DNA of 9,075 nt from a virus (taxonomy: Duplodnaviria; Heunggongvirae; Uroviricota; Caudoviricetes), in IMG/VR virus record IMGVR_UViG_2698536649_000010; one strand, written 5' to 3'. This document shows, piece by piece, positions 1,841 to 7,458 of this stretch. The translations under genes and the position numbers were made by a program. Position 1 is the stretch's first letter. The number at the start of each line of letters is the position of its first letter. The notes beneath the pieces are model-generated. The model was not told where the DNA came from. It was given only the letters and a program-made list of their open reading frames with translations, and did not search any database.

Positions 1841-1870
1841 AATTTAGAATAGCCTAAGAGTTATGGTCAA
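1841..1870 (-). promoter_or_regulatory. candidate dicB-operon promoter with embedded DicA-type operator
   Basis: On the minus strand: -35 TTGACC (+1865..1870), 18-bp spacer, -10 TAAATT (+1841..1846). The 14-bp palindrome TTAGAATAGCCTAA (+1844..1857) overlaps the -10 and has the same TTAG-N6-CTAA form as the three sites in the dicA/dicC intergenic region. Confidence 0.4.
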
Positions 1871-1967
1871 GCTTTTGTGTAGAAAAACCTAAGCTTCTTG
1901 ATGTAAAAAACACAAGTATTTGAAAGTTTGTGCTTTTTATTACAGAGAGTTGCGAAAAAAAGGGGGG

Positions 1968-2375
1968 TTATTTATTTGCGCTTCTTTTGCGAGCTTTGAG
2001 TAGTTCTTCAAAAAGTTTGTTGAAATTCTCAACTCGAGCACGCATCTCTGACAACAGAGCCTTTTGCTCTGACTCAGGCAGTGCGTCGAACAGTTGAAGC
2101 AACTCTTTTTGATCTTCTGTCAGATTGACTGGCTGATTATCTGGGATCGGTTCGCCTGGTTGCTTATCTTCATCTCCAAAAAGAAGCCAAGTCGGCGAGC
2201 ACTGAAGCGCCTGGCTCAGTGCGAATAATCTCTTCCCCGCTGGCTGTGTTTCATCTCTTTCCCATTGAGAAATTGTTACGTGAGCCACTTTGACCAGCTT
2301 ACCTAATGCGGCCTGAGACAGTTTTAATTTTTTTCGCCTGTATAAGAGGCGAGCACCGAAGGTTTCGTTTTTCAT
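1968..2375 (-). CDS. dicA: DicA-type repressor (XRE-family HTH, cI/C2-like prophage repressor)
   Basis: 135-aa product closely matches recalled E. coli DicA along its length (LFALSQALQCSPTWLLFGDEDKQP, ARVENFNKLFEELLKAR). Divergently arranged with a Cro-like gene. Confidence 0.9.
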   Translation of the reverse strand: MKNETFGARLLYRRKKLKLSQAALGKLVKVAHVTISQWERDETQPAGKRLFALSQALQCSPTWLLFGDEDKQPGEPIPDNQPVNLTEDQKELLQLFDALPESEQKALLSEMRARVENFNKLFEELLKARKRSANK

Positions 2376-2451
2376 ATTAGGTAATTCTAATTTTTCTTGA
2401 CTTAGGTTTCTCTACGATCTAGTTTCCTTAGGAAAATCTAAGGGGTTCGAT
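2376..2451. promoter_or_regulatory. dicA/dicC divergent promoter region with three TTAG-N6-CTAA operator-like palindromes
   Basis: Sites at 2377..2390 (TTAGGTAATTCTAA), 2402..2415 (TTAGGTTTCTCTAC) and 2428..2441 (TTAGGAAAATCTAA), centres 25 to 26 bp apart. Rightward -35 TTGACT at 2397..2402 and SD AAGGGG before the dicC ATG. Leftward -10 TAGAAT (minus strand, +2384..2389) sits 8 nt from the dicA ATG with no SD, suggesting a leaderless PRM-like transcript. Confidence 0.5.
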
Positions 2452-6307: not shown

Positions 6308-7066
6308 ATGAGGAACATAATGGCAGGTTTTTTAATATTCCTGTCTTCTGCTGCTTATGCTGATATCAATCTGTATGGTCCTGGTGGCCCGCATACAGCC
6401 TTGCTTGATGCAGCCAAACTTTATGCCGAAAAAACAGGTATTATAGTGAACGTTCATTACGGCCCACAGAACAAATGGAATGAAGATGCCAAAAAAAATG
6501 CAGATATCTTGTTTGGCGCATCAGAACAATCTGCTCTGGCTATCATTCGGGACCATAAAGACAGCTTCAGTGAAAAAGATATTCAGCCTCTTTATCTGCG
6601 AAAAAGTATTTTACTGGTAAAGAAAGGTAATCCTAAAAATATCCGGAGTATTGACGACCTGACCAGACCTGGGATTGGCGTAATTGTTAATGATGGTGGT
6701 GGTACCAGTAATACATCAGGCACTGGCGTCTGGGAAGATATTGCCGGACGTAAAGGGAATATAGAAACTGTCGCCGCAATCCGAAAAAATATTATTTTAT
6801 ATGCGCCCAATAGCGGAACTGCACGTAAGGCTCTTGAGAATCAGCCTGGAGCAGATGTCTGGATAACCTGGGCTGACTGGGCAGCCAGTAATCCAGAAAT
6901 TGGTGATGTCGTGGAAATAGCGCCAGACTACGTGATATGGCGTGATATGAACATTACAGTACGTCAGGATGCAAATGATGAAACCCGTCGATTTGCAGAA
7001 TGGCTACAAACCGATGAAGCGGCGCCTGCATTCAAAAAATATGGCTGGACCAGGAAAGGCACTTGA
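6308..7066 (+). CDS. secreted periplasmic substrate-binding protein, ModA-like fold; orphan (no transporter genes adjacent)
   Basis: 252-aa product with N-terminal signal peptide (MRNIMAGFLIFLSSAAYA then DINLYG). Resembles recalled E. coli ModA at several points (ADILFGASEQSA versus ADLFISADQKW; C-terminal RFAEWLQTDEAAPAFKKYGW versus AFYDYLKGPQAAEIFKRYGF). AT-rich codon usage. Confidence 0.8.
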   Translation: MRNIMAGFLIFLSSAAYADINLYGPGGPHTALLDAAKLYAEKTGIIVNVHYGPQNKWNEDAKKNADILFGASEQSALAIIRDHKDSFSEKDIQPLYLRKSILLVKKGNPKNIRSIDDLTRPGIGVIVNDGGGTSNTSGTGVWEDIAGRKGNIETVAAIRKNIILYAPNSGTARKALENQPGADVWITWADWAASNPEIGDVVEIAPDYVIWRDMNITVRQDANDETRRFAEWLQTDEAAPAFKKYGWTRKGT

Positions 7067-7249: not shown

Positions 7250-7302
7250 GCTGCGGGTGCTTGAGGCTATCTGCCTCGGGCATGAACACCAACGGCAGAT
7301 AG

Positions 7303-7353
7303 ATAAAAGCCCCACCCGACTATAAATCGAAGTGAGGCCCCTATATGCTCGTC
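7303..7353 (-). ncRNA. candidate Sok-like antisense RNA
   Basis: Minus-strand hairpin (7309..7339, stem with two G-U pairs) followed by a U-run (7308..7303). Possible promoter on the minus strand: -35 TTGACC (+7383..7388), 17-bp spacer, weak -10 CAATCT (+7360..7365). It is antisense to the hok leader around the mok start, where Sok acts in known hok/sok loci. Confidence 0.3.
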
Positions 7354-7401
7354 ACATATAGATTGCCTCTTACGGACCGAAAGGTCAAGGAGAAGCAGGC
7401 T

Positions 7402-7458
7402 ATGAAGCAGCAAAAGGCGATGTTAAAAGGCGGGGGAGAAATCCCTCGCCACCTCTGA
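7402..7458 (+). pseudogene. hok: truncated hok toxin ORF (18 codons; HokD-like N-terminus, transmembrane segment absent)
   Basis: Encodes MKQQKAMLKGGGEIPRHL then stop. The first 8 residues match recalled HokD/RelF (MKQQKAMLIALIVICLTV...); the hydrophobic helix and C-terminal domain are missing in all three frames before the terminator, implying an internal deletion of roughly 100 to 130 bp. Confidence 0.55.

Follow-up and report, generated by a model that had tools for sequence, protein, structure and literature searches.

TTAG-N6-CTAA palindromes as probable operators of a P22-type DicA/DicC immunity switch in an O157-type lambdoid prophage

Five palindromes built on TTAG-N6-CTAA lie on the two sides of the dicA-type gene in the window, i.e., the whole stretch of 9,075 bases analysed here, and we think, with a probability of roughly 85%, that they serve as operators in a P22-type immunity switch of the prophage. 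Most likely, these operators are common to the short DicA-type repressor and to the Cro-type protein DicC. The window represents the immunity region of a lambdoid prophage that is inserted at ompW in E. coli O157/O55/O145. Motif, layout and leaderless transcript are all known from earlier descriptions of the Qin prophage of K-12; there is nothing new in them, and the current understanding is therefore unchanged.

The repressor gene is on the minus strand (1968-2375) and encodes 135 aa with an N-terminal HTH_3 domain (Pfam, 4e-14). Its product shares 63% identity with K-12 Qin DicA over 131 residues, and its N-terminal domain (residues 2-69) matches the P22 C2 structures 1adr and 2r1j at ~1e-21. 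The Pfam search returned only HTH families for this protein, with no Peptidase_S24 match, and the RecA-dependent S24 self-cleavage domain of P22/lambda-type repressors is absent from its 135 aa. Past the stop codon there is a terminator-like hairpin on the same strand (AAAAAGCACAA...UUGUGUUUUUU, 1904-1939; inverted repeat, -11.2 kcal/mol, z = -3.6), which the terminator scan did not flag because it contains too few G-C pairs. The dicC-type gene is transcribed divergently on the plus strand (2452-2679) and encodes a 75-aa protein of the P22 Cro family (Pfam P22_Cro, 3e-13), 83% identical to K-12 DicC.

Exact matches to TTAG-N6-CTAA occur three times in the 9,075 bases (at 1844, 2377 and 2428), where 0.07 would be expected by chance, and none of 200 dinucleotide-preserving shuffles attained this number. 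Allowing one mismatch adds two sites, at 1879 and 2402, and all five are then found within the two non-coding regions flanking the dicA-like gene, which cover ~280 bases; by our own calculation, the chance of such a placement is (282/9075)^5, or ~3e-8. Moreover, 259 exact matches were counted in 30.7 kb of equivalent regulatory regions from 96 related loci, a redundant and phylogenetically related set, versus one in 437 kb elsewhere. A similar density in unrelated sequence, which an earlier note on this DNA had named as an observation that would speak against its proposal, is thus not found, and the recurrence of the palindromes is confirmed.

Three of the sites are located between dicA and dicC. 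R1 (TTAGGTAATTCTAA, 2377-2390) is the dicA-proximal one, in the position of K-12 Oa and of a lambda-style OR3, and R3 (TTAGGAAAATCTAA, 2428-2441) is the dicC-proximal one, in the position of K-12 Oc and of a lambda-style OR1; both are exact matches. R2 (TTAGGTTTCTCTAC, 2402-2415) is in the middle, in the position of K-12 Om. Of the three copies that the earlier note had counted here, R1 and R3 stand as such, but R2 is not a perfect copy because only 7/8 of its core bases match. The spacing of 25 to 26 bp given in that note agrees with our recalculation, with centres at 2383.5, 2408.5 and 2434.5 that are 25 and 26 bp apart. R3 is the only site with both half-sites in the strong form CTTAGR, and it can be extended to an 18-bp palindrome, CCTTAGGAAAATCTAAGG.

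The predicted dicC promoter (plus strand, 2397-2425) is formed by a -35 element TTGACT (2397-2402), a 17-nt spacer and a -10 element TAGTTT (2420-2425), with a predicted start near 2432. R2 overlaps the final base of this -35 element and most of the spacer, and R3 begins 2 nt downstream of the -10 element and spans the predicted start. On the minus strand, the predicted dicA -10 hexamer TAGAAT (2384-2389), whose register is kept in relatives, is found 7 nt upstream of position 2377 and 9 nt upstream of the dicA ATG; the predicted start is the A at 2377, leaving a 2-nt leader. Neither a Shine-Dalgarno sequence nor a good -35 element was found in the dicA upstream sequence. R1 covers the -10 hexamer (2389 to 2384, as read from the sequence) together with the predicted dicA start, in line with the operator that had been claimed to overlap this element. 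The predicted starts of the two genes are ~55 bp apart, and their promoter hexamers interleave. Both promoters were positioned via homology with K-12 and P22-type sequences, as a consensus promoter scan listed neither of them, their -10 or -35 elements being below its threshold; the dicC promoter was missed because its -10 element matches the consensus at only 3/6 positions. The -35 element TTGACT is kept in nearly all relatives and in P22-type immC. In K-12, the start of the dicA transcript has been mapped 3 nt upstream of the ATG (PMC4681348 Table S3), and TAGCAT, the equivalent of TAGAAT, is placed 7 nt before this mapped start. The window hexamer is a better -10 element in the same register, so that by analogy with K-12, and with the predicted 2-nt leader and the missing Shine-Dalgarno sequence, the leaderless repressor transcript that had been suggested earlier is probable.

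The predicted leftward promoter (minus strand, 1841-1870), found by the consensus scan, has a -35 element TTGACC (1870 to 1865), an 18-nt spacer and a -10 element TAAATT (1846 to 1841), and its start is predicted near 1834. L1 (TTAGAATAGCCTAA; minus strand cTTAGGCTATTCTAAatt), an exact match at 1844-1857, sits in the spacer and shares 3 bases with the -10 element, the overlap that had been described for a single site at this putative dicB-operon promoter. A second, distal site was overlooked in that description: L2 (GTAGAAAAACCTAA; minus strand cTTAGGTTTTTCTAC), at 1879-1892 just upstream of the -35 element, matches 7/8 core bases and has its centre 35 bp from that of L1. Alignment by eye indicates that the promoter is homologous to K-12 dicBp (TTGACC-17-TAATCT), including the conserved leader, and that L1 is homologous to the dicBp site TTAGTCATGGCTAA. 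Further downstream there is a DicF-like small RNA (minus strand, 89-138; Rfam RF00039, E = 1e-7), whose score of 43.5 bits is below the gathering score of 48, and in a 99.9% identical O157 record the annotation places dicB immediately outside the window start. The leftward promoter thus leads, as in a Qin-type DicA/DicC switch, into an operon with the DicF-like RNA and dicB. The proposal that the motif is present at both DicA-controlled promoters is well founded in this respect: the leftward one is the dicBp homologue, with the same -35 element, an operator in the spacer/-10 region, the same leader and the DicF-like RNA downstream. The conserved leader was also tried as a nut-/put-like RNA, for which Rfam gave no match and RNAalifold on seven diverse leaders gave only a 4-pair helix.

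Experimental work on K-12 indicates what these sites may do. The dicA-dicC-dicB control region of Qin, with the operators Oc, Om and Oa and those at dicBp, was described by Bejar et al. 1988, as reported in PMC10448788, and by Yun et al. 2012 (PMC3441716). The DicA operator Oc is TTGTTAGTCATAACTAACAA and contains TTAG-N6-CTAA (PMC3441716); it is found at 1869-1882 of the K-12 locus in our set (L001). Changing its CTAA to CTCA abolished DicA binding and DicA-dependent repression in an in vivo assay, whereas neither Om nor Oa, each taken alone, was bound by DicA in vivo (data not shown in PMC3441716). Since Oa has a perfect core, the 8-base core would be necessary but not sufficient. The K-12 dicC start was mapped by 5'RACE, and its promoter is TTGACT-17-TATCTT (PMC3441716); DicA represses dicC and is required for dicA transcription. 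ChIP-seq of K-12 DicC gave the motif TT(A/C/T)G...C(G/A/T)AA, and from the peaks dicA would have DicC sites to either side (PMC11430063), so that, by analogy, TTAG-N6-CTAA may be regarded as a DicC (Cro-type) motif as much as a DicA motif. Reg-Seq is uninformative on Oa because the RNA polymerase site for dicA was not found in the mutagenised region, and the gSELEX, O157 DicC and genetic-interaction (PMC9283627) studies contain no DicA operator sequence.

Conservation was followed in the 86 related loci whose repressors carry the recognition helix HV[TS][IV]SQWE. The eight core bases hardly vary among them, in contrast to the freely variable flanks and central six bases. At the L1-type site, 8/8 core columns are invariant over 33 unique variants, with central columns agreeing at only 58-61%; at the R3-type site, core columns are 96-100% conserved over 23 unique variants and central columns 39-61%; at the R1-type site, TTAG is 100% and CTAA 90-100% conserved over 10 unique variants. 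The R2-type site keeps the half next to the -35 element (CTAAG-TCAA), and its other half is degenerate or lost, wholly so in loci L003, L004, L007 and L008. The L2-type site is found 35-36 bp from L1 and keeps an imperfect half-site that reads CTAC among window-type loci and CAAA or CATA among K-12-type ones.

These patterns bear on a narrower reading, which we consider possible though doubtful: that only R3 and L1 are true DicA operators, and that R1, R2 and L2 are DicC-preferred sites or remnants of promoter overlap. As K-12 Om and Oa are not bound by DicA singly in vivo (PMC3441716), R1, R2 and L2 may likewise not be DicA sites when taken one by one. No lineage has a perfect R2-type or L2-type site, and in some the far half of R2 has disappeared; R1 overlaps the dicA -10 element, the half of R2 that is conserved adjoins the dicC -35 element, and the overlapping -10 hexamers, rather than protein binding, could account for part of the conservation seen at R1 and L1. 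However, the CTAA half of R1 is outside all promoter hexamers and is nonetheless 90-100% conserved. L2 keeps even its defect (CTAC or CAAA), at a constant distance of 35-36 bp from L1, and the spacings of 25-26 and 35-36 bp differ by one helical turn, which suits weak sites filled cooperatively, as is the case for weak sites among lambda and P22 operators. Besides, single-site assays are blind to cooperative binding. We favour five operators shared by DicA and DicC.

A comparison of recognition helices points in the same direction. Repressors with the helix SxxSISLWE have TTGAG or TTAAG half-sites at the equivalent positions, and those with xSVxxFKWE have AACTT-type half-sites; judged from these sequences, the half-site changes along with the recognition helix. 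The candidate DicA operator consensus put forward in the earlier note gains credit from this co-variation, from the core present in K-12 Oc and from its near invariance in the 86 loci. It is very improbable, in our opinion, that the palindromes serve mainly as sites of another factor, e.g., YjdC or an H-NS/Cnu complex, instead of DicA and DicC. YjdC does occupy the dic locus and alters dic gene expression (PMC9283627; PMC11430063), the Cnu-H-NS complex antagonises DicA at K-12 Oc (PMC3441716), and the regions are A/T-rich. A host factor cannot explain, however, the co-variation of the half-site with the DicA helix, nor the repression at K-12 Oc that needs dicA and is lost by a one-base core change (PMC3441716), and the DicC ChIP-seq motif fits the core (PMC11430063); we reject this reading. 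We give practically no weight to recurrence as a chance outcome of A/T-rich promoter sequence: eight specified bases would produce ~80 chance copies per 5.5-Mb genome (own calculation) and the -10 hexamers TAGAAT and TAAATT supply parts of two half-sites, but the 0/200 shuffles, the enrichment of 259 versus 1 in related loci and a core that stays invariant while the spacer varies rule it out, and R3 and L2 are free of promoter-hexamer overlap.

The five shared operators suggest how the switch would work. We infer by analogy the binding by the window's own DicA and DicC, the order of affinity and the cooperativity. In the lysogen, DicA dimers would bind R3 (2428-2441) best and would next fill the imperfect R2 (2402-2415), probably cooperatively. 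Occupancy of both would cover the dicC start, spacer and -35 element, so that dicC, the ydaT-like gene and the replication genes would no longer be transcribed rightward. DicA at L1, over the spacer and -10 element, together with the imperfect L2, would block the leftward operon comprising ydfC, the DicF-like RNA and dicB, the latter outside the window. The repressor itself would be made from a weak promoter, with TAGAAT as -10 element and no good -35 element, as a nearly leaderless mRNA. Since the dicA and dicC hexamers interleave, we propose that dicA is turned on by silencing of the dicC promoter and/or by direct contact with DicA. R1, over the dicA -10 element and start, may be the point where DicC, and perhaps excess DicA, shuts dicA off.

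DicA-type repressors that are 62-66% identical to each other keep the TTAG/CTAA core, and their operators diverge at the flanks and centres only. As the core is shared and O157-type genomes contain up to four regions resembling the window, cross-talk might occur between the switches of co-resident prophages, the DicA or DicC of one partly occupying the operators of another. We think that this is rather unlikely, but it would couple the expression of several dicF/dicB operons if true. The loci of E. ruysiae and E. albertii have mixed operator sets, in which some sites carry K-12-like flanks and others are window-like; this would fit exchange between the window and K-12 types. Furthermore, the rule that links the TTAG/CTAA core with the helix HV(T/S)(I/V)SQWE can be used for annotating the operators of other DicA-type prophages.

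Among known systems, K-12 Qin shares with the window the order and orientation of the genes, a short repressor without cleavage domain, TTAG-N6-CTAA at the dicC-proximal, dicA-proximal and dicBp-proximal sites, and degenerate middle and distal sites. The spacings are 25+25 bp in Qin versus 25+26 bp in the window, and the leftward pair is 35 bp apart; the -35 elements TTGACT and TTGACC are common to both, as is the leader downstream of dicBp, and the dicA -10 element overlaps an operator likewise, with a near-leaderless mRNA that in the window is predicted. The differences are in the operator flanks and centres, cCTTAGG-wwww-yCTAAGg in the window versus TTGTTAG-yCATrr-CTAACAA in K-12. The full 20-bp Oc with its TTG...CAA flanks is missing at the window sites, where the flanks are CC...GG, A...A, etc. 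and the centres are A/T-rich, which points to a different specificity variant and is no argument against the same mechanism. The two prophages are probably different immunity types. In addition, the leftward spacer is of 18 nt in the window versus 17 in K-12, the first leftward-operon genes are a 99-118 aa ORF versus ydfA and ydfB, and the window prophage retains replication genes, unlike Qin.

The OR/OL regions of lambda and 434 have divergent repressor and cro genes separated by three graded operators, another set of operators at the leftward promoter and a leaderless repressor mRNA made from a weak, repressor-dependent promoter; the 434 site is of 14 bp, in which 4 outer bases are conserved and the 6 central ones vary. 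The window shares the divergent genes, the three graded operators, the leftward set and the 14-bp site. However, far less distance separates its dicA and dicC promoters, whose hexamers interleave, and sequence similarity to 434 Cro is weak (3e-4). In K-12, Oc, reported as the site that activates dicA, would be centred ~57 bp upstream of the dicA start, whereas lambda OR2 is next to the -35 element. The lambda/434-style switch of the earlier note holds for the layout, with three palindromes between repressor and cro plus leftward operators (R2 and L2 being imperfect), but the closest model is P22 immC. P22 C2 differs in having a C-terminal cleavage domain and RecA-mediated inactivation; DicA-type repressors lack this domain and are freed by an antirepressor, Rem in the case of Qin (PMC10448788). 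In phage Emek, whose C2 N-terminal domain is identical, a P22-type immC contains three palindromes, ATTAAAGAACACTTAAAT, ACTAAAGGAATCTTTAGT and ATTTAAGATGACTTAACT, in the same register as in the window and with centres 23 and 25 bp apart. Its TTGACT -35 element adjoins the middle site, its last palindrome stops directly before the repressor ATG, and its Cro proteins are in the same Pfam family as the window DicC; the P22 half-site TTAAG differs from the TTAGG or TTAGT of the window and K-12 by one base at one position.

The TTAG-N6-CTAA core, with its eight fixed bases, occurs exactly at 1844, 2377 and 2428 within the 9075 bases of the window, three matches where 0.07 would be expected; in 200 shuffles that number was never reached. 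When one mismatch is allowed, two further sites are found, at 1879 (GTAG...CTAA) and 2402 (TTAG...CTAC), and there are no others with up to one mismatch anywhere in the 9075 bases. An independent search for repeats also picked these elements out, as direct and inverted copies resembling one another. Three of them, R1 (2377–2390), R2 (2402–2415) and R3 (2428–2441), lie between the dicA-like and dicC-like genes, and two, L1 (1844–1857) and L2 (1879–1892), at the leftward, dicB-operon type promoter. The earlier note had counted three intergenic copies and one at the leftward promoter. Two of the former (2377, 2428) are perfect, but the third (2402) matches only seven of the eight core bases; L1 is present, but a second site at 1879, 35 bp from the first, had been overlooked. 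The spacings of 25 and 26 bp hold, the centres being at 2383.5, 2408.5 and 2434.5.

The leftward promoter, as read from the sequence, consists of TTGACC (1870 to 1865, minus strand), an 18-nt spacer and TAAATT (1846 to 1841). L1 occupies this spacer and runs three bases into the −10, in agreement with the overlap claimed for the putative dicB-operon promoter, and L2 is immediately upstream of the −35. The predicted dicC promoter (plus strand) is formed by TTGACT at 2397–2402, a 17-nt spacer and TAGTTT at 2420–2425; R2 overlaps its −35 and spacer, and R3 starts 2 nt past the −10 and spans the predicted start near 2432. R1 contains the predicted dicA −10, TAGAAT (2389 to 2384, minus strand), as had been noticed before. 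This hexamer is 7 nt ahead of an A (2377) that precedes the dicA ATG (2375) by two bases, and the sequence upstream of dicA has neither a Shine-Dalgarno sequence nor a good −35. A dicA −35 would have to lie at 2407–2412, within the spacer of the dicC promoter, whose own −35 falls within the dicA spacer, so that the two predicted promoters overlap (2384–2425). Their predicted starts are about 55 bp apart. Due to this interleaving, RNA polymerase binding should be mutually exclusive, which offers an indirect explanation for the reported DicA dependence of dicA transcription. Just past the dicA stop codon there is a hairpin (1904–1939, minus strand; −11.2 kcal/mol, z = −3.6) flanked by an A-tract and a U-tract, overlooked by the terminator scan because of its few G-C pairs; it looks like a terminator, potentially active in both directions, that could insulate dicA from the leftward promoter region.

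The Qin region of E. coli K-12 has the exact core at three places: Oc (TTAGTCATAACTAA), adjoining dicC; Oa (TTAGCATTAGCTAA), ending 2 nt ahead of the dicA ATG; and a site (TTAGTCATGGCTAA) in the spacer and −10 of the dicB-operon promoter dicBp, TTGACC-17-TAATCT. Its middle site, Om, is degenerate and 25 bp from both Oc and Oa; the distal dicBp site, 35 bp upstream, is also degenerate. The leader past dicBp (...CACCGCACGGTGTTCTCAGCAAACAGTTCCGCTACC...) is near-identical in the window. These matching sites, spacings and leader indicate that both regions are homologous site by site. Yun et al. (2012, PMC3441716) defined Oc as a 20-bp inverted repeat, TTGTTAGTCATAACTAACAA, in which the spontaneous mutations permitting cloning of the region clustered. 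Oc-mediated repression requires dicA and is lost on change to TTGTTAGTCATAACTCACAA (CTAA to CTCA), whereas Om and Oa, each assayed alone, showed no DicA binding (stated there as data not shown). In the same work DicA was required for dicA transcription and repressed dicC, whose start was mapped by 5'RACE. The K-12 dicA mRNA is among five E. coli mRNAs classed as leaderless, starting 3 nt before the ATG (PMC4681348, Table S3), 7 nt past a TAGCAT hexamer in the same register as TAGAAT in the window, and dicA is also listed among known leaderless genes (PMC8794815). By analogy, a near-leaderless repressor transcript, as proposed earlier, is predicted for the window. As for DicC, ChIP-seq in a 2024 preprint placed its strongest signal at the dicA/dicC promoter, inferred two sites on either side of dicA and yielded a palindromic motif whose two halves are TT(A/C/T)G and C(G/A/T)AA (PMC11430063); in O157:H7, dicA expression falls under DicC overexpression (PMC6915034).

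For comparison, 19 genome loci (Escherichia, Citrobacter, Buttiauxella, Superficieibacter, Symbiopectobacterium, Rahnella and some metagenome bins) and 80 viral contigs encoding DicA relatives, 50–100% identical to that of the window, were gathered. The motif recurs in these loci: their two regulatory regions, together 30.7 kb, contain 259 exact cores, versus 1 in 437 kb elsewhere, the loci being related and redundant. Column conservation was evaluated in 86 loci whose DicA carries the helix HV(T/S)(I/V)SQWE. At the L1-type site the eight core columns are invariant and each central column agrees in 58–61% (33 unique versions); at R3 the core is 96–100% conserved and the centre 39–61% (23 versions); at R1 TTAG is invariant and CTAA 90–100% conserved (10 versions). 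R2-type and L2-type sites are imperfect in all lineages with lineage-specific defects: the window type has GTAG...CTAA and TTAG...CTAC, the K-12 type TTAA...CATA and TTAG...CAAA. The R1–R2 spacing is 25 bp in 84 of 86 loci, R2–R3 25–26 bp in 81 of 86, and L1–L2 35–36 bp in nearly all, with one at 34. Between L1 and L2 (1858–1878) the window is one base shorter than relatives such as L002 and L022 (ACAAAAGC versus ACAAAAAGC), hence its 35 bp instead of the 36 found in most relatives of the window type. On both sides of dicA, L003 (E. ruysiae) and L004 (E. albertii) combine operator styles, with K-12-like flanks at some sites (TTGTTAGA...TCTAACA) and a match to the window type at the dicA-proximal and leftward-promoter-proximal ones (TTAGAATTACCTAA, TTAGGTTATTCTAA), a pattern that points to recombination among immunity variants.

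More distant repressors differ in the helix, and their loci in the palindromes at the equivalent positions: TTGAG or TTAAG types accompany SYASISLWE and SHATISLWE, ATTGAG-TTTT-CTCAAT accompanies SGSSISLWE, and AACTT types occur alongside SHVTIFKWE and SSVSVFKWE. This co-variation is the pattern expected of repressor operators, and it counts against a host factor as the binder as well as against a chance origin of the repeats. Present within Oc, kept across the 86 loci and varying with the recognition helix, the core stands as the candidate DicA operator consensus that the earlier note put forward.

By our reading of the window, a strong half-site is CTTAGR. R3 has two (CCTTAGGA, CCTTAGAT), L1, L2 and R2 combine one with a weaker half (TTTAGA, TGTAGA and CGTAGA), and both halves of R1 are without the C (ATTAGG, ATTAGA). 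Half-site quality thus predicts the affinity order R3 > L1 ~ R2 ~ L2 > R1, which would be the order required if the repressor silences dicC first and its own promoter only at high concentration. DicA on R3 and R2, and on L1 and L2, would keep RNA polymerase from the dicC promoter and the leftward one, and dicA would then be transcribed from its own weak promoter, either through a polymerase contact made by DicA at R3 (centred about 57 bp ahead of the predicted dicA start) or because DNA is freed once the overlapping dicC promoter is silenced. R1 may serve for dicA shut-off by DicC, perhaps by excess DicA. The sites, their geometry, conservation, co-variation with the helix and homology come from this analysis; K-12 experiments supply DicA action at Oc, its repression of dicC and dicB, its requirement for dicA expression, DicC binding to both regions and the near-leaderless dicA mRNA. 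Given the negative single-site result for Om and Oa, the main uncertainty is any DicA binding at R1, R2 and L2.

Across the 1051 bases around the palindromes, identity is 99.9% with prophages of E. coli O157:H7, O55:H7, O145:H28 and O103 chromosomes, and 99.8% with GenBank phage entries under the name PPompW; the latter are ompW-integrated prophages, some of which adjoin Stx2a phages. In the annotated O157 record, the leftward genes are the repressor, a hypothetical, ydfC, a hypothetical, dicB, a DUF1482 gene, exonuclease, xis, int and an ompW fragment; rightward there are a Cro/CI-family gene, a YdaT-family gene and DnaT-like and P-like replication genes. The repressor gene of the window (1968–2375, minus; 135 aa, Pfam HTH_3 only) is 63% identical to DicA of K-12 Qin, and the divergent one (2452–2679, plus; 75 aa, Pfam P22_Cro) 83% to DicC. 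A DicF-like small RNA (89–138, minus; 43.5 bits, E = 1e-7) escapes the default Rfam scan, its score being just under the gathering score of 48. The sok antitoxin RNA of a hok/sok-type toxin-antitoxin locus is at 7255–7404 (plus; RF01794, 103.9 bits), where the near-identical O157 record has hokD annotated. At 6308–7066 (plus), where that record annotates the AcfC-family adhesin Paa, there is a 252-aa ORF, a virulence-associated cargo gene within the prophage. The leader transcribed from the leftward promoter (1765–1834, minus; CATCAAGACACCGCACGGTGTTCTCAGCAAACAGTTCCGCTACCCGGCGTTAAGGGG) has the same position in L001 (K-12 Qin), L007, L079, L080, L014 and others, and is more conserved across DicA lineages than the surrounding operators and genes. 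By eye, its first hairpin, ACACC-GCAC-GGTGT, apparently keeps its pairing through two-sided changes, and the distant loci L015, L017 and L019 have a boxB-like CCGGAAAGACGG in its place. It may act in antitermination, as a nut- or put-like element; no Rfam match was obtained for it, and RNAalifold returned only a 4-pair helix.

For K-12 Qin, the literature already describes the motif, its arrangement at both promoters, the leaderless transcript and the analogy with lambda and P22; Ragunathan et al. (2023, PMC10448788) summarised that locus as lambda-like, with three operator sequences each at dicCp and dicBp, and showed that the antirepressor Rem, not RecA, releases DicA. The window adds a second member with the same core, probably heteroimmune, and the comparative survey a simple helix-to-half-site rule. 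Cross-talk between co-resident DicA-type switches through the common core may occur but is rather unlikely.

A lambda/434-style switch had been proposed. The switch layout stands, but P22 is the closer model: the DicA N-terminal domain aligns with that of P22 C2 (PDB 1adr, 2r1j, 3jxb) at about 1e-21, and matches 434 Cro weakly (3e-4). In the P22-type immC of phage Emek, whose C2 N-terminal domain is identical, the cro-c2 intergenic order is ATTAAAGAACACTTAAAT, ACTAAAGGAATCTTTAGT, TCAAG, ATTTAAGATGACTTAACT, ATG, with three palindromes whose centres are 23 and 25 bp apart (25 and 26 in the window), a TTGACT −35 beside the middle one, as in the window, and the last palindrome running up to the repressor ATG. 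When the centres are aligned, the half-sites are TTAAG in P22, TTAGG in the window and TTAGT/C in K-12. Compared with P22 C2, the window repressor is truncated and, by analogy with K-12, probably antirepressor-controlled. From the shared layout and the half-site comparison, we conclude that the window is a P22-type immunity region with half-site specificity shifted by one base; the original K-12 authors reportedly also likened their locus to P22 over lambda or 434.
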